Source: Candidatus Zambryskiibacteriota bacterium
GTDB lineage: Bacteria; Patescibacteriota; Minisyncoccia; Phycocordibacterales; WO2-35-19
Length of the DNA stretch: 64,000 nucleotides
Assembly (NCBI GenBank): GCA_048499675.1
Contig: JASNZL010000006.1
Location: 2,089-66,088, forward strand
Direction: 5' to 3'
The notes beneath the pieces are model-generated. The model saw only the letters and a list, made by a program, of their open reading frames with translations. It was not told the origin of the DNA and searched no databases. The position numbers were made by a program, and so were the translations under genes. Position 1 is the stretch's first letter; the number at the start of each line of letters is the position of its first letter. Of the stretch, positions 6,621 to 40,794 are shown in pieces.

Positions 6621-6811
6621 TAAGTTTTATTTAAGATATTATCCTTTTACTTCAACCCACGCATAATTTTCTGCTGAAAATTTGCGCAATTCTTACAGAA
6701 TCTGTCCACTCATTGGATTTTTCTTCAAATAATCTCAATGAGTCTTGCGAAGCTCCAAGTATTCGCTTCTCACCCACCTCAGCTCGTCAGCTTCCGGTCG
6801 GTCGATGTTTC

Positions 6812-8636: not shown

Positions 8637-9680
8637 TCAAGTTCCTGTATCCGTCCAGCACTTTTGAGACTCTGGGACTGTTAATTTGGAACAAATATAC
8701 TGCAAAGGAGAGAGCATGTGAAGAGCATAGTGGGGACGACGAGTGTTGTACCAAATGAGCCAGTCAATTAGTTTCTTGTTAAATTCAGGTACATTATCTC
8801 GAAGAAGTGATCTGTGATAAACAAGGAACTCTTCATTTAGACTACGATTAAATCTCTCCACATGAGCGTTTTCTTTAGGTGATCTTGGATGAGTATTGAA
8901 GTGTAGACCTGTTTCTTCCACTGCTTGGTGGAAGTGGAGAGCAAACTCTGATCCATTGTCAGTCTGGACATCTTTGGGACACAAAGGTAGAACCTGACGA
9001 GTTTTGGAGAGAAAATCGGCAGCACTTCTTGATCCATGATTAGTATAGGCTGTAGCAAAAGCAGTACGTTTTTCGATATCTATGCCAGTCAAAATGTATC
9101 GCTTCACTCCATCCACAAATCGTACAACAGTATCAACTTCCAACACTCTATATCCTTTGGGTCTCCTGAGCTTCTTTCTAGGCTTGTATACTCGCTCAAT
9201 TAGCTTTCCAGTCTTTCCTGAGACGGAGAGTTTTGTGTTTTTTGGTAACTTACCTTGAAACTTTAAGTCATTAATCATTCGACCAACAGTTGAGGGTGAA
9301 AGGTCTGCCACCTTCTCATTTTTCATCATGACAGAAAGTTTGTCCTTCGAGAGACGAGGAGTTTGTCCTCTTTCTTTCAAAATGAAAGCTTCCACCGCTT
9401 CCGGTACGGTTCTTTTTCTTCTGTGTATTGGAGCTGTACTTTTCTTGTTCAGATTCTCTAATTTTCCTAGGTTAGCTTTTAATTTTTTCTGCCATCGGAA
9501 AAGAGTTGGTCTAGAAACCTTGAAAGCTTCCTTTGTAGCTTCCATACTATACTTCTTCCAGAAAGAGAGTATTTTAGCTCTTTCTTTTGCTTGTTCGGTA
9601 ATCATATACCGAAATCGTATCACTCTTTCCCAAGTACTTTTAAATCCTCTGGTTCCCCTAAATTTGTTGAAAAATGCCAT
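8637..9680 (-). CDS. DDE (rve integrase-core) transposase, IS481-family-like
   Basis: N-terminal HTH, rve core with DNGSEF, and HVERFNRSL...RPH in the C-terminus. The ORF is 347 aa. Confidence 0.75.
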   Translation of the reverse strand: MAFFNKFRGTRGFKSTWERVIRFRYMITEQAKERAKILSFWKKYSMEATKEAFKVSRPTLFRWQKKLKANLGKLENLNKKSTAPIHRRKRTVPEAVEAFILKERGQTPRLSKDKLSVMMKNEKVADLSPSTVGRMINDLKFQGKLPKNTKLSVSGKTGKLIERVYKPRKKLRRPKGYRVLEVDTVVRFVDGVKRYILTGIDIEKRTAFATAYTNHGSRSAADFLSKTRQVLPLCPKDVQTDNGSEFALHFHQAVEETGLHFNTHPRSPKENAHVERFNRSLNEEFLVYHRSLLRDNVPEFNKKLIDWLIWYNTRRPHYALHMLSPLQYICSKLTVPESQKCWTDTGT

Positions 9681-14093: not shown

Positions 14094-15128
14094 CTGAAAA
14101 TTCTTGTTTGAAATGCAACTGGCGGTAATATAATTTGTATGGGAAAAACAAGAATTTTCGTCCAGTTGGACGAGCATAAAAGAGACAGGATTGAAGCTCT
14201 TTTGACTCAAGGAGTGGAGAAAAAATTAATAGCTAAAATCATCGGAGTACACAAAAGCACCGTCACAAGAGAGGTACAAAAAAGAAGCAGATTGAATGGA
14301 GAATATAGAGCCAGCTCTGCGGAACACAAAGCTCAAATTTTGCGGAGCAACTCTAAATATCAAGGCATGAAAATCGAGAGGCATCCGGAACTCCGGAGGT
14401 TCATAATTTCAGAATTAAAAAAATATCAATCTCCCGATGGTATCGCCGGAAGAATGAGAGAAGAAAAATGGTCAGTCAGAGTTTCGGGAGATGCCATATA
14501 CCGATGGCTTCGATCTGTTCACGGAGTAAGATATTGCAAGTATCTTTGTACCAAAAGATATCGCAAGAAACCGCATACTGATACTCCAAAGAGGCAGATC
14601 ATCCCAAATATGGTCAGTATTCACGATATGCCAGCTAATCCGGGATTTGTGACCGAAGGAGACACATTCCTTTCACCAAAGAAAATATCCAAAACGGCAG
14701 CGGTACTTGTCGGTTGGAGAGAAACCAAACTTCTCAAAGGAGACTTGGTTAAAAGTCTCCGACCGATACATACTGCGAGAGTTATGAGAAAAATTAACAA
14801 TGAAAACATCATTCATGTTATGATTTTGGACCAAGGTGGAGAAAACCGAGAGCATGAAAAATTCAGCATGAAGACATATTTTTGCGATCCGGCATCTCCG
14901 AGGCAGAAACCCTTCATTGAGTCCAGCATCGGATTATGTAGAAGATGGTTTTGGCCCAAGGGAACTAATTTGAAAAAAGTATCAAAAGAAGAATTCCAAG
15001 AAAAATTGGAAATCTTAAACAACAAATACAGAAAAACGCTTCGTTACCGAAGCGCCAATGAAGCAGCGAGAGAGTGTGGTATCATTCATGGCAATTAGCA
15101 ACTCCAGTTGCATTTCACCCCAGAATTT
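14094..15128 (+). mobile_element. IS30-family insertion sequence with about 25-bp terminal inverted repeats
   Basis: IRL aaattcttgtttgaaatgcaactgg (14096-14122) and IRR ccagttgcatttcaccccagaattt (15104-15128) are reverse complements. They bracket a single transposase ORF. Confidence 0.75.
14139..15098 (+). CDS. IS30-family transposase
   Basis: N-terminal HTH (IAKIIGVHKSTVTREV) and a C-terminal FCDPASPRQKPFIESSIGLCRRWFPKGTNL, typical of IS30 DDE transposases. Confidence 0.7.
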   Translation: MGKTRIFVQLDEHKRDRIEALLTQGVEKKLIAKIIGVHKSTVTREVQKRSRLNGEYRASSAEHKAQILRSNSKYQGMKIERHPELRRFIISELKKYQSPDGIAGRMREEKWSVRVSGDAIYRWLRSVHGVRYCKYLCTKRYRKKPHTDTPKRQIIPNMVSIHDMPANPGFVTEGDTFLSPKKISKTAAVLVGWRETKLLKGDLVKSLRPIHTARVMRKINNENIIHVMILDQGGENREHEKFSMKTYFCDPASPRQKPFIESSIGLCRRWFWPKGTNLKKVSKEEFQEKLEILNNKYRKTLRYRSANEAARECGIIHGN

Positions 15129-15263
15129 ACACAAAACCTCCTCTACTTACTATACATAAATTTACTGATTTGTCAAATGAATGAAACCCGGCACCAATCA
15201 GGGATTGGCACCGGGGCTATTGCTTTACTTCGGGTGTCGCCTTTGAACAAGACGACTCCTGTC

Positions 15264-15470: not shown

Positions 15471-15680
15471 ACTCTTTAGTGCATCAGCTAGTCGTATCTC
15501 ACCACTTCTTTTTTATGTCTTTCACCTTTTTATTATATGACTTGAGCCACCTCGCAGGATCGGTCACGGATAATTTCCTCATCGTCACTCGGAAATTTCC
15601 GCGACCCCGCCTCGCGACCAGCTTTGCTAAGCTGGTACCCGCTCCGACTTTCGATCCTGCAATAAAACTACTTTTTATTG

Positions 15681-15753
15681 AGCCACCTCGCAGGATCGAA
15701 CTGCGGACCTGCGGTTTACGATACCGCCGCTCTACCAACTGAGCTAAGGTGGC
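15681..15753 (-). tRNA. tRNA-Thr (anticodon CGU)
   Basis: Cloverleaf GCCACCT/AGGTGGC acceptor, D-arm GCTCAGTTGGTAGAGC, anticodon stem GCGGT/ACCGC with loop ATCGTAA, and T-arm CTGCG-TTCGATC-CGCAG. Confidence 0.8.
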
Positions 15754-15952
15754 AAATTTTACGATAAATGAGCCGTTGATCGGGATTGGTGTCAACTCAC
15801 ATCAATATTTTTATTCGTAATACTCTAAAAATATTGTGTGGTTCCTACCCGGCCTCGCCCGTCTCGCTTAGCTCGACATGGCTCCGGCTTTCAACCTCCG
15901 AACGCAAAGCAAGCAGTTTCTTTGCTTCAACACCTCACTCACTTTGTTCGTG

Positions 15953-16025
15953 AGCCGTTGATCGGGATTGAACCGATGACCTCCCCCTTACCATGGGGGT
16001 GCTCTACCAACTGAGCTACAACGGC
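15953..16025 (-). tRNA. tRNA-Thr (anticodon GGU)
   Basis: GCCGTTG/CAACGGC acceptor, anticodon stem CCCCC/GGGGG with loop ATGGTAA, T-loop TTCAATC. Confidence 0.8.
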
Positions 16026-16139
16026 ATAGATTAAATCTATTATATAAAACAAATCTTTTCAAACCACAAATAAAATCAAAATTTAAAAATCAAAATTAAA
16101 AATTACAATTTAAAATTTAAAATTTTTGGACTTTTTAAC

Positions 16140-31694: not shown

Positions 31695-32813
31695 CTAAGG
31701 CAAAGACTCTACATTTTTAAGCCTAGGATATAATATAACATCACGGATATTTTCATATCCAAGCACCCAGGCAATAAATCTTTCAATTCCTAATCCAAAA
31801 CCTGATGTAATTTTGTAATTATCTTGTCTACGTAAATCTATATACCATTCATAATTTTTAGAGTCTACAGATTGTCTTTTTAATGATTCATAAATTTCAC
31901 TCGGATTATCTTGCCTTTGACCAGCTCCAACAATTTCTCCTGAAAAACCTTCAGTTGATAGAGGGGGAAACATTAAATCCGAAGCAATTACTGAATCATT
32001 ATTAAATGGTTTTTGATAAAAAGGAGTCATATCTCTATCAAAATTTGTAATCCAAAATGGCTTAAAATTACCCCTATTAGCTGCATATGCCCTTTCTCCT
32101 TTTGCTGATATCTTTCTACCAAAATTATTCTGTATAACATATTCATTACCGCCTTTTCCTTCCAAATCCTTAAAAACCTCATCAAAAGTAACAGAATCCA
32201 ATCTTTCACTTTTTTGAATAGAAATTAAAGCAGCTTTAGTGTTCAAAGGATCAATGGCCATTTTTTCAACAATTGGCATAAGTGACATACAAATTTCAGA
32301 TAGTGCTTTTATATAATCTTCAACCAGTGGTATTAGATTTTCCATTTTGTCTAAAATTTCTGCTTCGCAATGATAAAATTGATTTAAATGTCTTTCATCA
32401 GGATCTTCTCCTCTCATTGAGGGTAAATAACAGTATAATTTATCAATATTATTACCAAGTAACGGTTCAAAACCAAATTGTGATGAATCAGTAAGATTAG
32501 TTAAATTCTCCCCCAATTTGAAAGCAATGGCTTCAGAATCAGACCCAGGACCCATTGGTGAGGATACACTTGAAGTCATCATAAACAGATCAATATTCTT
32601 TGCTCCAACATGATTACTAAAAAAATCATCTGAAGCCAGTTTAATATAATGTCTTAATATGATAAGTGCTTCATAGTAAGGATTTTTAATAATGTCTAAA
32701 TAATAACTACTTGGAATATATTTGGAAGGTCTTAATTCTGAATTTATATTTTCAATAAACTTTCCAGACTCACTTTTAGCCTTTTTTAAAATTTTTTTAG
32801 ATACAAAAGTCAT
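31695..32813 (-). CDS. Asparaginyl-tRNA-synthetase-like protein: class IIb catalytic core only, no anticodon-binding domain
   Basis: Motif 2 is YLPSMRGEDPDERHLNQFYHCEAEI. Motif 3 is NYEWYIDLRRQDNYKITSGFGLGIERFIAWVLGYENIRDVILYPR, nearly co-linear with AsnRS DYWWYRDLRRYG...[27 protein letters not shown]. The N-terminal 120 aa are unrelated to the OB fold. Confidence 0.75.
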   Translation of the reverse strand: MTFVSKKILKKAKSESGKFIENINSELRPSKYIPSSYYLDIIKNPYYEALIILRHYIKLASDDFFSNHVGAKNIDLFMMTSSVSSPMGPGSDSEAIAFKLGENLTNLTDSSQFGFEPLLGNNIDKLYCYLPSMRGEDPDERHLNQFYHCEAEILDKMENLIPLVEDYIKALSEICMSLMPIVEKMAIDPLNTKAALISIQKSERLDSVTFDEVFKDLEGKGGNEYVIQNNFGRKISAKGERAYAANRGNFKPFWITNFDRDMTPFYQKPFNNDSVIASDLMFPPLSTEGFSGEIVGAGQRQDNPSEIYESLKRQSVDSKNYEWYIDLRRQDNYKITSGFGLGIERFIAWVLGYENIRDVILYPRLKNVESLP

Positions 32814-33767: not shown

Positions 33768-34928
33768 CTATTTATTATTTGATAAAACCTCTAAATATAT
33801 ATCTCGAGTTTTGATTAACATCTTTTCTAGAGAATAGTGTTCTTCATAATATTTTAAAGTATCTTTACGCATCTTTAATATTTTATCTTCTGATAATTTC
33901 AACATTATACTTGCTGAATTTCCAATAACATCTTCATCGACTCGAAAACCTGATACTTCGTTTTCAAACATTTTTGATACAGAATCCAAATTAGGTAATA
34001 TTGGTATGCATCCGCAAGACATACTATCTATTATTGAAATAGGAAAAACATCTGATGTTGAAAATAACACAGAGAAAGAACAGTTCACCATTATAGATTT
34101 CATCTCACTAGGATCATCTAAATATCCGTATAGTTTTACGAATGGTAAGTTTTCCTTTTTTATTTGTTCATATAGTTCTCCTTCCCCTATTACATGTAGA
34201 TTTACATTATTAGTTAATCTAATTTTTTTTACTAAATCAATTGCTTTCAGTATTCCTTTGTCATAACTTAATTTTCCTAAATACAGAATATCTGTTGTTA
34301 CTTTTAAATTATTTTGATCAACAGGTTCAATTTTTGATGTATGATGTATAATTGATATATTATTTCTTTTTATTTCATATTCTTTCTCTACTACTTTTTT
34401 AGATTCATCAGAAAAACATATAATATGATTTGAATTAAGCAACATATCTTTTTCAATATTAATAATATCAAGATGCTTTTCTTCTATTGGGTTTTCTATC
34501 ATTTTTTCATATTGTTTTTGCAAAAAATGAATTGAAGATATAATTGGAATTTTTAAAGCCTTACTAACTTTTTTTGCTGTTATCCAAGACATCCAATTGT
34601 TTGAATGTATTACAATATTTTTTAGATTATTATTCTTAATAAAATTAATAATATGCTTAGCAAGAAAATCCTGCCAAATTAAAAAATTATTATAATTATC
34701 AAAAATAGAGTACTTATCATGACTTAAATATTTTTCATCTTCCTCCATTTCGGTTGTAATTATTGTTTTATCAAAAACTCTAACTTTCTTTGCGGTAGCC
34801 ACATAAGATTGTATATCTGAATATTCCCTTAAACCATTATGAAGCCTTTCTACATAAATACCCATACCCCATAATGAATTAGGTGGATAATCTGAAGTTA
34901 TATGAATCACTACTATATTTCTTGACAT
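33768..34928 (-). CDS. Glycosyltransferase, GT4 (GT-B) family
   Basis: C-terminal GT4 motifs ...LYLGKLSYDKGI...E(x7)E region; 386 aa. Confidence 0.6.
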   Translation of the reverse strand: MSRNIVVIHITSDYPPNSLWGMGIYVERLHNGLREYSDIQSYVATAKKVRVFDKTIITTEMEEDEKYLSHDKYSIFDNYNNFLIWQDFLAKHIINFIKNNNLKNIVIHSNNWMSWITAKKVSKALKIPIISSIHFLQKQYEKMIENPIEEKHLDIINIEKDMLLNSNHIICFSDESKKVVEKEYEIKRNNISIIHHTSKIEPVDQNNLKVTTDILYLGKLSYDKGILKAIDLVKKIRLTNNVNLHVIGEGELYEQIKKENLPFVKLYGYLDDPSEMKSIMVNCSFSVLFSTSDVFPISIIDSMSCGCIPILPNLDSVSKMFENEVSGFRVDEDVIGNSASIMLKLSEDKILKMRKDTLKYYEEHYSLEKMLIKTRDIYLEVLSNNK

Positions 34929-36076
34929 AATTTATATATTTTAGAATTACTATCATAATTTTTACCTACTTGTAATAATAATTCCCCCACTCTTATCCCG
35001 TTTTGAGAGATGTAATCTGCAATATTTTTCTTAGCTTTATCATCATCAATATCTCTTTTTATAATATCAACAAAAATACTTTCTAATTTTTTTAATACTT
35101 CCAAACGAGAGTCAAATTTTTCTAAGAATATATCGACATCTATGTCACCATTAAAAAGTTCTTTGTATTTTATTGCAATATTTTTAATTTCTTCTCTAGT
35201 AAAACCAACTGTCTGTGAAAGAAAAAAAACAGCATTAATATATTTGTTAATCATTTTTTTTGTTCTTCCTCTGGCTTGTTGAATTATGGAAATAGCGTTT
35301 AAAACAACTTCTAGATATGTTAATGCTTTTTTCTCCAAAGGTGAGCTGTGCTCTCTTACTTTGAACATGTTGGAATTTTTAAAAGGATCTCCTGATCCGG
35401 TTAATGACATTTCTAAAAATTCACGGCCAACACCAAACTCTATAGCTAATTCTTTGTCATCTTTATAAATCAAAACTATATTCCCAACATCCCACCATTC
35501 TCCATTTTTATCTTTTATAAAAATTGTAATTCCTTCACCTTTTAAATTATCAATACCATATTTCCATTGGTAAAAACGCGAATAATCTACTTCTGTTTGT
35601 ATACCCCTTTTGACAAATGGACCCAGGAGTTCAGAATGTTTTTCTGGAACAGTTGGTTTAATTAGTAAATTTTTATTATCAACCCCATATTTTTCTTTTA
35701 ATAATTTAATAACATCATTTACTATTTTGTCATATTCACCAGGTGGACAAAATATTCCATCTATATGAAAAAATGGCATACCAAAAGGTATATGCGATGT
35801 ATCATAAGCATTAATAATATCATGTGTCCTAATACAAGATTGATTAATAACAAAGCTATTTTCTGGAGATTTTCCACTTATTAAATAATCTTTAAAGGCA
35901 TTTATAGAAGATCCAACAAAAGGAACTGTGTCATCTTCCTCAGAAGGATTTAAAGATAAGCTTTCTCTTTTTATGTATCCTAAATCTACAAAATGATTAA
36001 GAAAAGTTTTATGTGTTTCTTGAGATTCAATGCTAGAGCTATTTTCTATATTACTACTAAAGTTAAAATTCTTCAT
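34913..36076 (-). CDS. Alanyl-tRNA-synthetase-like protein: class IIc catalytic domain only, no tRNA-recognition, editing or C-terminal domains
   Basis: FLNHF...[28 protein letters not shown] ~ AlaRS FLDFF...[35 protein letters not shown] ~ [24 protein letters not shown] ~ TFFEMLGNFSFGDY. GNIVLIY ~ [17 protein letters not shown] ~ DTGMGLERI (motif 3). Confidence 0.7.
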   Translation of the reverse strand: [387 protein letters not shown]

Positions 36077-36897: not shown

Positions 36898-37384
36898 TAA
36901 TAGAGATTATCACATTTGTGTGAAATAGAAAATATTTTATTTAAGCTAGATATTCAAAGAATATTCCTTGGCGCGAGTGATCCTCTTTCGCTTAAGCTAC
37001 AGTGGGACGCAGTAGGATTTGGTCACACATATTTTTCTCGCCGTCGCTCGAAAAATTGTTCGACCCCGCCTCTCTTCTGAACTTTGCTAAGTCCAGCCTC
37101 CGCTTCGCTTCGGGCGCTGCGGCTTTCAAGTCCCATCGTGCTTAGCATAAGCACCAAAAGAAAATCCCAGTTTTTACTGGGATTTTCTTTTGTCGCTGCG
37201 CGAGTGATGGGAATCTTTTCCTCAACTCAAAATTTTTTCAGTCAAAAAATTTTGGTCTGGGCACCGGCTCATGGAAATTTTTTGCTAAAAATTTCACATT
37301 CCGCCGTTCAAGTCCCATACGCAAAGCAAGCAGTTGCTTTGCTCACTCGCTTAAACAAAAAGCCCCCAGAGGGGGTTTTGTTTG

Positions 37385-37658
37385 CGCGAGTGATGGGACT
37401 TGAACCCACGGCCTTCCGCGTGCACTGATCCACTATTTTCATAATGGCGTGGACTATATCTTCGCCATGAGCATTGAGCTTTTAGGTGCTTTGGTATCTA
37501 GTCTCTACGGCGCTCTCGCCTCAATTAGGCAAGTTCCCTCGGTGTTCGCATATCTTTCGACTTAGCCTTCACCGATATCCCAAAGAGTTTCAATTCGTCT
37601 TTCAACGAAAAGCTGCAATTCTACAGGCGGACGCTCTAACCAGCTGAGCTACACCCGC
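37385..37658 (-). tRNA. tRNA-Asp (GUC) interrupted by a 200-nt group I intron in the anticodon loop (between nt 35 and 36)
   Basis: 5' exon GCGGGTG-TA-GCTCAGCTGGTTAGAGC-G-TCCGC-CTGT. 3' exon CAC-GCGGA-AGGCC-GTGGGTTCAAGTCCCAT-CACTCGC-G. The reconstituted loop is CTGTCAC, with G73, C38 and G10 (Asp identity elements). The intron ends in G and carries a P7-like GTAGAGACTAGAT. Confidence 0.7.
37423..37622 (-). other. Group I intron (about 200 nt) within tRNA-Asp
   Basis: An internal guide GCAG can pair with the exon end CUGU (U·G at the splice site). The terminal nucleotide is G. It shares a GTAGAGACTAGAT core motif with the intron at 39867-40138. Confidence 0.6.
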
Positions 37659-38322
37659 ACTTTTATATATCTCTCAAAAATCACCCTTTTCCTACCAAGA
37701 AATAATTTTGAGGTATATAGTCCATTATACATAAAACTATATAATTTTAAAGAGCCATAAATGCTATATGTTAAACGATAAAAATTACCTTTCCCTTTCT
37801 TTAATACTCCTTTTTTTATACCATGTTTCTCTAATTTATCATTTATACTTTCCAGAAAGTTTTTTGAACAAGAAGTGAAAACTGTTTGTATAGATAAAGT
37901 ACTTGTTCTCCTGTTCTTGTGGATTAAACCACTCCACACATTACCATCCCCATCAAAATACCCCCTTACAAAATGGCAAAAAATTTATCTGGAATATTTG
38001 GAACTGCTAGACTTTTGGTTTTGTTTTGTCTCATTCCCAAATCGTAGAGATCGTTATACATTTCCTTACTACCAATTTGCAATCTATAGCTAATTTTATC
38101 TTCTTTGCGTTTTTTTACTCTTAAACTTATTTTATGTTCCGATCCAATTGTTTTTTTAATCTCCATTAGTAATTTTTTATCGTTAATATGGATATTCCAA
38201 AAATGGGCACCCCTTTTGTTTAAGGTCATATATCCGTCAGCAGCAAAAAAACCTAAAATATAAGCCATCTCCGGTGTCCATTTTTTAAAGAAATTTTTGT
38301 TTACATTTTTATATATCGGCAT
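37649..38322 (-). pseudogene. LAGLIDADG homing endonuclease, free-standing, split into two ORFs (37966-38322 and 37649-37939)
   Basis: The N-terminal ORF has AYILGFFAADGYM (the LAGLIDADG motif) and the C-terminal ORF carries the second half-domain. The split lies at 37940-37965. The 3' end abuts or overlaps the tRNA-Asp 5' end. Confidence 0.65.
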
Positions 38323-38970
38323 GATTTAATAATATCTCGTGACAGTATAGTTTACTATCCGTAATGTTTATAGCTTTTAAACTTTCTGATAAAAAATTAC
38401 CGCTTCACTACCAATCCAACAGGCGGGAAGGTTGCAGAGCTACTGCGGTGTAAGTACAATTAATATATATTAATTAATCTAAATTATGGAACCTAATGAT
38501 CAAAAACTGATTGAGTTGGAGAAAAAAGTTGATGCGATTTATGAATCCGTAGAAAAAACCAGAAAATATTTTCTCTGGACCTTGATTATTACTCTCGCAA
38601 TAGTTGTTTTACCACTAATTGCTATGATGTTTGTAATCCCCTCTTTTATAAGCAGTTATACAAGCACTTTGGATACTTTGGGATTGTGATTATTTTGTAC
38701 TTGCACAGCAAAACGAAGTGAAGTGGTGCTGGGGGTGGGGATCGGTCACAAATAAATTGCTTCGCAATTTTTCGTCTTCTTACAGAAGCTGTTCACTCAT
38801 TGGGCTTTTTATTTCGCATAGCTCATAAAAATTCTCAATGAGTCTTGCGCTTGGGCCCCATCCCAAGCTCACCCCAGCTCACCTGTTTCTCTTTGCTCAA
38901 CATGGCTCCACTTTTCGATCCACAACGCAAATCAAGCAGTTGATTTGCTCTGAAAAAAATACTTCGTATT

Positions 38971-39047
38971 TGGTGCCGGGGGTGGGGATCGAACCCACGA
39001 CCTGAGGTTTATGATTCCTCTGCTCTACCAACTAAGCTACCCCGACA
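38971..39047 (-). tRNA. tRNA-Met/Ile2 (anticodon CAU), intronless, with encoded CCA
   Basis: GTCGGGG/CCCCGGC acceptor, D-arm GCTTAGTTGGTAGAGC, anticodon loop ATCATAA, T-arm CGTGG-GTTCGAT-CCCAC, and 3' CCA. Confidence 0.75.
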
Positions 39048-39061
39048 ATTCTCATAATTTA

Positions 39062-39748
39062 TCATATTTTAGAACGACTTGCCATATAATCTATGGCCCC
39101 AAGTATTTTATTTTTTAAGAATAATCCCCTCCTAACCTTAATCCTTAAAACACCTCTATAAGTAGCAATATTTTTAAAAGAAGCTTTTTTAAGCTTTGAT
39201 TTTATTAGAGTCGTCTTTGAAAACTGATTTTCTTTTATATTTAGATATTTTATCCAAAAATTTTTTATTTTTTCCTTTTCAATCTTAAATATATCATTTA
39301 AAGACAAGCGAAATATTAAATCATTTTTTGATACATTATTTTTTTGAAGCCATTTTATATAGAACCTTATCATTTGCGGATTGCTGTTTGTAAAGCCCAT
39401 TTCATCATTACTTTCTTTGTACCCCTCGCCCCAATATAAACCGAGCCCAACCATCAATATGTCTCTATCAGTAATTTTACCGACCATTTTTACACCTTTA
39501 TTTTTCTGATCAATAGTATTATGTATTCTTTGTGCCCTTCTCTTTTCTGAATATCTTAACAAACCCTTGATAGACCTTTCCTTTTTATTAAATTTCATCA
39601 TTTTTATAATAGATGTTGATAGTTTTATGTCTCTACACCAAAAACTGACAGTAGAAAAACTCACATTTAATTTTTTTGCTATCGCCCTAACTGTCTCTCC
39701 TTTTAATCGTAATCTCTTTGCCTCACTTTTTATACCTATATTATGCAT
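39062..39748 (-). CDS. LAGLIDADG-family homing endonuclease (LGLYWGEG variant) with an N-terminal HTH, free-standing between two tRNA-Met genes
   Basis: ILMVGLGLYWGEGYK is a LAGLIDADG-type motif. The N-terminal region RAIAKKLNVSFSTVSFW is HTH-like. Confidence 0.55.
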   Translation of the reverse strand: MHNIGIKSEAKRLRLKGETVRAIAKKLNVSFSTVSFWCRDIKLSTSIIKMMKFNKKERSIKGLLRYSEKRRAQRIHNTIDQKNKGVKMVGKITDRDILMVGLGLYWGEGYKESNDEMGFTNSNPQMIRFYIKWLQKNNVSKNDLIFRLSLNDIFKIEKEKIKNFWIKYLNIKENQFSKTTLIKSKLKKASFKNIATYRGVLRIKVRRGLFLKNKILGAIDYMASRSKI

Positions 39749-39834
39749 GAGGTAAATTATACACTAAGGTGTGTGCATTTAAATGTGTTATTAACACTTG
39801 CAAACATAAATATTTTAAAGTAATATATAAATAT

Positions 39835-40177
39835 TGCGGGGTAGAGTAATAGTAACTCGTCAGGCTCAAATATGGTGGGCCCCCTATTGAGAGATTAATA
39901 GGAGCAAATTCGCCAAATTCGGAGAAATCCTCTCCACTAAAAGTGGAAAGACAATTCCGAGCTAAATTCCTTTGAACTTGTCCTGCTTGCCCGACATAGT
40001 TTTAACAACGTTGGGAGCGAAAATCAAAGGATAAATGTGTAGAGACTAGATGGTGAAATTCCAAGTTTAAATTTGGAATATGGTATAGTCCAGACCCCAA
40101 ATCCCAATCATGGGAGCATTGAAAAATGTAGTGGTAAGCATAACCTGAAAATTTTGGTGCGAATCCAAACTCCGCAA
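39835..40177 (+). tRNA. tRNA-Met (CAU) interrupted by a 272-nt group I intron between U33 and C34
   Basis: 5' exon TGCGGGG-TA-GAGTAATAGTAACTC-G-TCAGG-CT. 3' exon CATAA-CCTGA-AAAT-TTTGG-TGCGAAT-CCAAA-CTCCGCA-A. The spliced loop is CTCATAA. The intron starts after U, ends in G, has an internal guide GGCC opposite the exon GGCU, and a P7-like GTAGAGACTAGATGG. Confidence 0.7.
39867..40138 (+). other. Group I intron (272 nt) in tRNA-Met
   Basis: See the tRNA call above. There is no ORF inside. Confidence 0.6.
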
Positions 40178-40794
40178 CACGCAAATTGCACATAAAAATC
40201 CAGTTTAAAACAACTGGATTTTATGTTTGCAATTAAGTAGCCACGTGGTGAGCTTGTCCCGTGAAGCTTTGCTTTTTACGGGACATAGCGAATTTTACGT
40301 GGCCGCGATTTCTTTTCAAACCTCACCTCATTTATTGTAAGAGAAAAATTAAATATCGTTTTTCAAAACTCGATTTTCTCCGTGCAAAAAATCATTCTCT
40401 ATTTTTTAAGAAAGAGATTAAATTTTTTTATAGATACAGAACAAGAAATAAGAAGTGTGTAAAGTTAGATTTTTTCAAACAGTATTTTGAAAACAGCTTT
40501 CTGAAAATTAGCAAAGCGTTCGTTTTCAATAAGAATAGCTGTCTCAGTATCAAAATCTATAAAAATAACCTTGTCGTTTCCAATAAGTTGAGTGATATTA
40601 TACTCAAACGGAATATTCAAGGCTTTTGAGAGACGATTCAAATTGTTATGTCTTTTTTCGTGCGTCTTTCGGTTAGTAATTACATATTTATCAATATCTC
40701 CTTTAGATCCAGCTCTCTTCCAATATAAATCTGGATAATACTTTTTGTTATAGGAATAGTCTTTGGGTGATTCATATCGGTATATTGCACCTTC

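Follow-up and report, generated by a model that had tools for sequence, protein, structure and literature searches.

A candidate non-coding element family linked to tRNA genes in Candidatus Zambryskiibacteriota and related Patescibacteria, with a structured cap between tRNA-derived arms

In a 64,000-nucleotide (nt) stretch of Candidatus Zambryskiibacteriota bacterium (assembly GCA_048499675.1, contig JASNZL010000006.1, positions 2,089 to 66,088; the whole stretch is called the window here), four minus-strand tRNA genes, Thr(CGU), Thr(GGU), Met, and Asp, are trailed by five related modules, A to E. Every module closes with a copy of the 3' end of the neighboring tRNA, 13 to 21 nt long and beginning at C56. 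The description best supported by sequence comparison is a new non-coding family linked to tRNA genes, in which a central domain, the cap, appears to be under single-strand structural selection and two flanking arms appear to be templated at the DNA level from the adjacent tRNA. The element is not the scar of an integrase, as the defining tests of that idea failed.

The displaced 3'-end copies had been noticed in a first-pass annotation of the window, and they are real and non-random. BLAST within the window paired the Thr(CGU) copy with 15678-15698 at 21 of 21 positions (E 1.7e-6), the Thr(GGU) copy with the end of its tRNA over 17 to 20 nt (E 5e-4), and the Met copy with 38971-38991 at 20 of 21, CCA included (E 8e-4); with such values in 64 kb the copies are not due to chance. 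The Asp copies are 13 to 15 nt long. Positions given earlier hold for both Thr copies, while the Met copy lies at 38724-38744 instead of 38738-38760, an offset of 14 nt, and the Asp copies start at 37198 and 36971, each 2 nt from where they had been placed. The proposal that the intervening modules are related also stands. A covariance model (R1), built from 34 copies with module A among the seed sequences, joins all five: applied to the 64 kb, it returned exactly five significant matches, all on the minus strand and all 3' of tRNAs (E 4.8e-25 to 7.7e-6), with no further significant match and no copy away from a tRNA.

Aligned on the tRNA strand, the five modules share one order: an optional hairpin (H0), an antisense copy covering the T-loop and the 3' strand of the T-stem, GAAAGnCGGAGC, P2, GAGGCnGGGU, P3, and the tRNA 3'-end copy. 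P2 and P3 are variable hairpins, and P3 ends in GUGAC, after which the copy begins from C56. The predicted fold of module A is a three-way junction (-59.8 kcal/mol, z -5.4). Alignment and a search for compensatory changes, which the annotation had proposed as a check, revealed a shared conserved structure with compensatory changes present; within the window, the hairpin GCAAAGCAA/TTGCTTTGC of module D stands against GCAAATCAA/TTGATTTGC in module C. Some details had been drawn too uniformly. The plus-strand motif GGTCAC, said to follow each repeat, does so in A and C only; B has GGTGTCA, D has nothing similar, and in E the motif (37021-37026) comes after a fragment of another tRNA. The 9-bp hairpin described as perfect is so in D and C, and B carries a single mismatch in it. 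The plus-strand T-arm look-alike is present and, read on the tRNA strand, is an antisense copy of T54-N64 of the neighboring tRNA.

To place the modules in a wider context, we scanned one genome per species with a 20-base core pattern, GAAAGNCGGAGC-N14-44-GAGGCNGGGT, which gave at least 119 stretches. The family counts used here (129 matches, 116 copies, 100 loci, and the loci L002 to L120) rest on the matches listed from this species-representative scan. Almost all of those listed are from Patescibacteria, or the Candidate Phyla Radiation (CPR), including Parcubacteria/Paceibacterota, Saccharibacteria, and Falkow-, Nomura-, Zambryski-, Vogel-, Moran-, and Giovannonibacteria among others, and several are from Elusimicrobia; four of the listed stretches are obvious chance matches in coding DNA. 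A same-strand tRNA lies upstream within the locus for 105 of the 129 matches listed, and with 39 anticodons among them the modules adjoin many tRNAs other than those of the window. The distance from tRNA end to core is usually 23 to 116 nt (median of about 63), longer distances being mostly tandem second copies, plus two outliers. With the coding chance matches dropped, the covariance model finds 116 copies in 100 related loci, where an antisense arm lies within 170 nt of 100 of 203 tRNAs, compared to 33 in a control. Many tRNAs have no unit.

The tRNA genes next to modules are also unusual at their ends. CCA is encoded in 3 of 91 module-linked genes versus 27 of 122 (p = 5e-5), and it follows the downstream copy in 7 of 54 cases versus the gene itself in 1 of 54, usually differing by one base from the CAA of the gene. 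CCA inhibits endonucleolytic 3' cleavage, and the rarity of encoded CCA fits a need for such cleavage ahead of a structured trailer. On one reading, a stable structured trailer would force endonucleolytic 3' cleavage, and the copy would preserve an older state of the gene end. Terminator-like hairpins with a T-run stand between tRNA and core in 38 of 82 units, and terminator-like hairpins lie downstream of some units (19 of 82).

The class I cap is a three-way junction (GAAAGCCGGAGC / GCGAGGCGGGGUCG / GUGAC) with a GCC-GGA-GC / GC-GA-GGC internal loop. Three analyses, namely RNAalifold, mutual information on anchored columns, and pair counts on 115 distinct sequences, agree on helix Px (GCC/GGC), the 3x2 internal loop GGA/GA, P2, and a long P3 with a conserved bulged A. 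The GGA/GA loop probably forms tandem sheared G-A pairs plus one bulged G. Pairing in Px, P2, and P3 is 93 to 99.7%, and double-change cells number 599 versus 215 in shuffles, of which 0 of 500 reach 599; the signal collapses when partners are slid. In addition, the n of GAGGCnGGG and the third base of P3 covary as Watson-Crick partners (77% paired, mutual information 0.96), which suggests a tertiary or alternative pair. The junction thus described has about 25 to 30 conserved nt and freely covarying stems. In about 20% of class I units (L002-L120), the UC opposite G57-A58 is replaced by GA (..GGAUGAGAAAGCC / ..GGACGAGAAAGCC), which would create tandem G-A pairs beside the junction.

The strand on which the cap is selected can be read from its wobble pairs. 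G-U pairs in the tRNA-sense fold outnumber those in the antisense fold in P3 (160:19), H0 (107:15), and P2 (63:29), with p from 5e-4 to 6e-29, and the cap structure is therefore selected on the tRNA strand. Selection most likely acts on the cap as a single strand of RNA.

Both arms derive from the adjacent tRNA. The 3' arm is a direct copy that always starts at C56 and reaches the discriminator plus 1 to 3 nt, or beyond this in tandem arrays. The 5' arm is the antisense of T54-N64, its upper limit being sharply set at position 64. A second antisense block, complementary to the acceptor 3' strand (65/66-73), is found in 29 of 84 units, compared to 3.6% in the control. In 18 of these 29, a constant 25-nt insert (H0 and its linkers) parts the two blocks at 64/65|65/66 and so places a branch at the acceptor/T-stem junction. 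An acceptor-like helix on a T-stem-like helix, a junction branch, and a discriminator are all found in such units; in the remaining ones, module A included, the antisense acceptor arm is absent or degenerate. Together, antisense arm and copy are predicted to give a pseudo acceptor/T minihelix in which the cap replaces the T-loop.

The arms track the tRNA and not each other, with 74 and 49 single departures versus 9 compensatory changes (9 of 132), and their mismatches lack a G-U bias (16 G-U versus 19 A-C). With compensation this rare, no such bias, and 45% pairing in the model alignment, selection on the helix between antisense arm and copy (P1) as RNA is not supported. Of 85 copies, 38 match perfectly over 18 nt, and many others have small deletions or stop after 5 to 15 nt, a pattern of deletion and truncation, not of gradual mutation; in 35 of the 85 units no intact acceptor strand was found in the copy. 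Two tRNA-Ala cases (L098 and L022) have an antisense acceptor block that complements the 3' strand perfectly (A3-U70) instead of copying the 5' strand of the tRNA. In orthologous units of related species (L004 and L032), the 3' copies follow three substitutions in the acceptor strand of their own tRNA. At variable positions of the T-loop both arms agree with the local tRNA, at 91 to 95% for position 59, and the antisense arm agrees with the local tRNA at 95% for positions 59-60 and 73 to 84% for 63-64. Taken together, the arms appear to behave as DNA-level copies of the adjacent tRNA.

Other origins for the copy were considered and set aside. Derivation from a mature tRNA by a retro-process sits badly with a CCA that follows so few copies and with identity that often runs into the trailer of the gene itself, and a fixed-length target-site duplication with a start fixed at C56 and an end that is variable or truncated. 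Four loci (L026, L098, L027, and L107) have perfect palindromes of 23 to 28 bp composed of the acceptor 3' strand with its trailer, a terminator-like hairpin, and the antisense acceptor block; that they are perfect suggests recent synthesis on a template, by fold-back or template switching.

Caps resemble one another across tRNA loci in ways that arms and flanks do not. A Saccharibacteria contig has one cap after tRNA-Leu(CAA) and another after tRNA-Tyr that share about 95% identity between GAAAGCC and UGACC, and their arms and flanks are unrelated. Variable stems beside different tRNAs in different genomes reach 86 to 93% identity against a background median of 55%, as in L094 (Ser) and L113 (Leu), L067 (Ala) and L071 (Ser), and module A of the window and L078 (Ser). 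In L094 and L113, both arms differ only at T-loop positions 57-59, where each matches the local tRNA. These similarities point to caps that spread or are homogenized between tRNA loci. Units occur in tandem arrays (L018, L090, L096, L119, and D with E in the window) and nested in one another (L020), and the same arms are shared by class I and at least three further, unrelated cap classes. Within module E, the 3' end of another tRNA (CAAATCCTACTGCGTCCCAC) at 37002-37021 on the minus strand precedes the partial Asp copy, implying past exchange between tRNA loci.

The further cap classes (L035, L020, L032, and L004) form tandem or nested arrangements with class I units. The sequence of class III is GAAGGGCG...GUAGCGCCCAGG, a hairpin, and GAAUCC, and the class IV cap is very small, at about 20 nt. 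A structured motif related to class II, unannotated, lies in the window just 3' of the rplK stop codon (6812) and recurs in module C (Table 1); it reads GAGGUGGGUGAG, a hairpin, CAAGAC..UUGAG.., and then ..GAGUGGACAG-AUUC-UGUAAG-AAU. The class II sub-motif AAAAGGTGTACTG-N3-5-CTGTAAG is found in metagenomes, where about half of the matches listed follow a tRNA and others lie elsewhere, for example, after rplK (L138). The motif downstream of rplK matched no Rfam family at gathering or permissive thresholds. The class II motif may resemble the 23S L1 stalk, and core1 of class I may resemble RNase P CR-I; neither putative resemblance was used as evidence.

Searches for a partner gene gave little. 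None of about 50 open reading frames (ORFs) of the window encodes a recombinase of the tyrosine or serine type, a reverse transcriptase, or an HUH enzyme; they include two relics of DDE-type transposases and LAGLIDADG ORFs. Clustering of ORFs around the 116 copies (100 loci) yielded no recurrent protein family, the neighbors being housekeeping genes (L19, LepA, RbfA, SmpB, CCA-adding enzyme, and others), and the module inserts themselves have no ORF. In 2.9 million viral contigs of IMG/VR, the core pattern has one match, a degenerate tandem array, and on this result the idea of a phage attP was dropped. Known RNA families were equally uninformative. All Rfam 15 families, ribozymes, riboswitches, and T-box included, gave no relevant match over the modules at E <= 10; with tRNA and transfer-messenger RNA (tmRNA) models (RF00005, RF00023, and ARAGORN), the true tRNAs alone score, and the modules are noise at E 7 to 10. 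A hammerhead fitted by hand to the three-way junction was discarded, as the registers do not match. Literature searches by core sequence and by topic found no description of the element, which is not proof of its being unpublished.

The reading that we favor, tentatively and at a confidence that falls somewhat short of probable, is of a non-autonomous structured-RNA element on tRNA genes that evolves in concert or is mobile, is selfish or weakly domesticated, and mimics the acceptor/T minihelix. The cap would act as a folded tRNA-sense strand, most likely an RNA that the tRNA promoter yields by transcription or read-through, and with its arms would form the pseudo acceptor/T-arm minihelix. The tRNA could then be released undamaged by host RNase P and RNase Z, with cuts at its true 3' end and at the ends of the pseudo-tRNA. 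Caps may spread or homogenize across tRNA loci by using the near-universal T-loop sequence as shared homology, and arms would be copied anew at the DNA level from whichever tRNA gene adjoins, later to decay or be truncated. Such an element would be selfish, or at most weakly domesticated. Of the alternatives that the first-pass annotation had placed beside integration, a non-autonomous family linked to tRNAs and structured RNAs tied to tRNA transcription, each is supported in part.

Several points weigh against this account. It is a mechanistic puzzle how a single insert would come to hold its target twice, once inverted and once direct. The cap similarity across loci could reflect gene conversion among resident copies instead of transposition, and no filled/empty-site polymorphism was found, exact-protein look-ups having returned a near-identical contig (L001) with the same modules and one short, uninformative contig. 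The excess of G-U, or G-T, pairs fits a folded single-stranded DNA (ssDNA) of the same strand equally well. Junction nt that are very strongly conserved across phyla, in part as imposed by the search pattern, could indicate a host function, as could the match of the arms at variable T-loop positions. With terminator-like hairpins upstream of the core in 38 of 82 units, co-transcription would depend on read-through.

The main rival, unlikely in our estimate and still the most serious, is a module that benefits the host by acting in cis in tRNA 3'-end maturation or quality control. Here the antisense arm would pair with the T-loop and T-stem of the nascent tRNA, and with the acceptor 3' strand where that block is present, the downstream copy would compete and free the tRNA, and the cap would bind a factor or ligand or serve as a ruler for cleavage at the discriminator, in a three-segment logic resembling that of attenuators or riboswitches. 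The close fit of the antisense arm to the local tRNA, down to the 57-59 differences of L094 and L113, speaks for such a module, as do a hairpin inserted precisely at the acceptor/T junction, the strong association with tRNA genes without encoded CCA, the enrichment of antisense arms near tRNAs over the control, and a cap under purifying selection across phyla. However, the pairing it requires is not visibly selected as RNA, given the lack of a G-U over A-C bias and the rarity of compensation; the copy is often truncated or found without an intact acceptor strand, at least four unrelated cap classes sit on the same arms, units are tandem or nested, many tRNAs do without one, and terminator-like hairpins often precede the unit. 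A further reading, to which we would give a slightly lower weight, is that the caps are catalytic or guide RNAs. In one version, a mobile RNA free of protein genes would be guided to the T-loop by its antisense arm and would copy or join itself to the tRNA 3' segment; in another, a cis-acting ribozyme or ruler would generate the mature 3' terminus of tRNAs without encoded CCA in the reduced genomes of CPR bacteria. Less likely again is a small tRNA-like RNA acting in trans, as a minihelix decoy, sponge, or guide for tRNA-binding enzymes, toxins, or the cognate tRNA. About one-third of units do combine a pseudo-acceptor stem with a lengthened T stem that bears a side arm at the equivalent of the 7/49 junction, 19 of 82 are followed by a terminator-like hairpin, and the cap is constrained as an RNA would be, but no promoter is evident between upstream hairpin and unit, the A3-U70 of L098 and L022 in place of G3-U70 means that the identity element of tRNA-Ala is lost, the acceptor strand of the copy is so often not found intact, and neither ARAGORN nor the Rfam tRNA and tmRNA models score the modules.

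Two recombination-based explanations fare worse. A folded-ssDNA element, in which a tRNA-sense circle rebuilds the duplex from T-loop to 3' end and a host recombinase exchanges it with the tRNA gene, seems improbable. One-strand exchange at 55|56 would yield the observed order of tRNA, trailer hairpin, antisense arm, cap, and copy, the selected strand is the tRNA sense and hence the lagging-strand template for co-oriented genes, and the arms behave as DNA. Against this, no recombinase is linked, a 3' end borne by the element would need to match each of 39 tRNAs, an unpaired junction under such strong conservation would be more usual in the tertiary structure of an RNA, and no circular or free form was observed. 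Integron attC sites and CTX phage attP(+) are comparable in their strand-specific hairpin and in a stem that reconstitutes the target site of the chromosome in duplex form, and differ in having an integrase partner, a far less conserved junction, and a target other than a tRNA gene. The explanation first offered for the repeats, footprints of tyrosine integrases and decayed integrative elements, with attL/attR around a collapsed interior in the T-loop-to-3'-end segment of tRNA genes, is largely refuted, and we regard it as the least probable of all. It accounts for a complete tRNA with a displaced 3'-end copy whose identity starts in the T-loop, for tandem arrays that look like accretion, and for CCA after copies more often than after genes, as if the copy were the original gene end. 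Yet the cognate integrase that was to be looked for is absent from the ORFs of the window and does not recur near the 116 related copies, and the insert is only about 120 to 250 bp, without cargo. Its interior, 100 to 250 bp, is a conserved covarying structure found across phyla and 39 tRNA types, an inverted target copy is present that integration does not produce, and viral contigs supply a single match.

Comparison with known systems shows partial likenesses. Like miniature inverted-repeat transposable elements (MITEs) and repetitive extragenic palindromes (REPs), such as BIME/REP with RAYT, Correia, RUP, and the IS200/IS605-derived PATEs, the element is small, non-coding, multicopy, hairpin rich, and intergenic, with strand-specific structure and homogenization within genomes. 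Unlike in those repeats, the arms vary with the adjacent tRNA, there are no fixed terminal inverted repeats in common, and the cap is the conserved part; linkage is to tRNA genes, and no cognate transposase was identified. Mimics of tRNA include the t-elements of plant mitochondria, MALAT1 mascRNA, and the tRNA-like domain of tmRNA. As in these, an acceptor-like stem is predicted on a T-stem-like helix ending at a discriminator, making recognition by RNase P or RNase Z plausible, whereas the T-loop is replaced by a large conserved three-way junction and the D and anticodon arms by one 20-nt hairpin, the stems copy the neighboring tRNA, and the tRNA and tmRNA models miss the modules. With small three-way-junction ribozymes and orphan RNA motifs (hammerhead and twister-sister), the element shares a conserved junction, covarying stems, many copies, tandem occurrence, the lack of an associated gene, and clustering with other structured classes; it differs in that Rfam gave no match at E <= 10 and the hammerhead mapping failed.

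The window itself is a segment of bacterial chromosome of low GC content (about 35%) with hallmarks of CPR: rplK/nusG, genes for type IV pili, LAGLIDADG ORFs, and tRNAs that contain group I introns. Upstream of tRNA-Thr(GGU), at 16062-16034, is a promoter-like TTGAAA-17-TAGATT, and from there through module B, tRNA-Thr(CGU), and module A this is the single promoter-like site and there are no terminators, which suggests co-transcription; tRNA-Thr(GGU) likely heads a tRNA-B-tRNA-A transcription unit. At tRNA-Asp, a terminator-like hairpin stands between the gene and module D. The gene is missed by ARAGORN because a group I intron of about 220 nt splits it (Rfam RF00028 at 37430-37660, E 3e-9, 40.6 bits, below the gathering score). 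A second intron-bearing tRNA, with anticodon CAU and on the plus strand, is the sole tRNA of the window without a downstream class I module.

Several ORFs lie near these loci. Three resemble LAGLIDADG homing endonucleases, one with an N-terminal helix-turn-helix (HTH) domain, and adjoin the intron-containing tRNA-Asp and tRNA-Met. Two stand-alone ORFs resemble aminoacyl-tRNA synthetases, one being a class II core of D/K/N type (372 aa) and the other a fragment of the AlaRS catalytic domain (387 aa); both lie inside a glycosyltransferase/LD-carboxypeptidase cluster, about 1 kb from the tRNA-Asp modules. A degenerate IS30-like ORF, with an HTH_38 domain only, is 440 nt from module A, and a DDE ORF with an rve domain lies near nusG/rplK. 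The Logan contig L001, 99.3% identical to the window, diverges exactly at 15130, and the IS30-like region is therefore strain variable.

Table 1. Coordinates of modules, tRNA genes, and neighboring features in the window
Feature	Coordinates	Strand	Remarks
Module A (class I)	15542..15679	-	Coordinates as first annotated; covariance model 94.3 bits, E 4.8e-25; short trailer hairpin 15662-15679; antisense T54-N64 15650-15660; core1 (GAAAGTCGGAGC) 15641-15652; P2 15617-15636; core2 (GAGGCGGGGT) 15604-15613; P3 ending GUGAC 15563-15603; 21-nt copy 15542-15562
tRNA-Thr(CGU)	15680..15753	-	ARAGORN and Rfam; CCA not encoded
Module B (class I)	15768..15951	-	Covariance model match 15768-15934, 55.7 bits, E 3.7e-14; parts in plus-strand coordinates: H0 15904-15925; degenerate antisense arm 15890-15901; core1 (GAAAGCCGGAGC) 15881-15892; core2 (GAGGCCGGGT) 15848-15857; long P3; Thr(GGU) 3'-end copy (C56 to discriminator plus CA) 15772-15790
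tRNA-Thr(GGU)	15952..16025	-	ARAGORN and Rfam; CCA not encoded
Module E (class I), tandem behind D	36971..37195	-	Covariance model 69.2 bits, E 5.6e-18, 37001-37166; 13-nt antisense of Asp T-arm 37125-37137; core2 37063-37072; GUGAC 37021-37026; partial Asp copy 36971-36983
Module D (degenerate class I)	37196..37384	-	Covariance model 26.2 bits, E 7.7e-6; terminator-like hairpin 37363-37375; H0 37321-37342; 13-nt antisense of Asp T-loop/T-stem 37306-37318; 15-nt Asp copy 37198-37212
tRNA-Asp(GUC)	37385..37680	-	Anticodon loop split by group I intron; 3' exon ~37385-37425; 5' exon ~37646-37680
Module C (class I 5' part with class II-like insert)	38724..38970	-	Covariance model 36.9 bits, E 7.6e-9, 38815-38957; H0 38927-38948; antisense arm 38914-38923; core1 38905-38916; class II-like insert ~38760-38870; GUGAC 38744-38749; copy 38724-38744
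tRNA-Met(CAU)	38971..39046	-	ARAGORN and Rfam; CCA encoded
tRNA, anticodon CAU, with group I intron	~39827..40190	+	Rfam 39857-40116, 60.8 bits
Class II-related motif 3' of rplK	6640..6810	-	
rve-domain DDE ORF	8637..9680	-	
IS30-like ORF	14139..15098	+	
Aminoacyl-tRNA-synthetase-like ORF	31695..32813	-	
Aminoacyl-tRNA-synthetase-like ORF	34913..36076	-	
LAGLIDADG-type ORF	37649..37939	-	
LAGLIDADG-type ORF	37966..38322	-	
LAGLIDADG-type ORF	39062..39748	-	

The very small genomes of CPR/Patescibacteria apparently carry many copies of an element of 120 to 250 nt, and a conserved folded core so distributed implies either an unrecognized RNA function or a very successful new selfish element. The family would add a structured RNA and at least three sister cap classes to RNA catalogues, and it explains tRNA 3'-fragment "pseudogenes" that are otherwise open to misannotation as integration scars, in addition to providing a sequence marker for these lineages. 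Should the cap be catalytic or guide processing, it would bear on tRNA 3'-end maturation in reduced genomes and would represent a new class of functional RNA tied to tRNA biogenesis.

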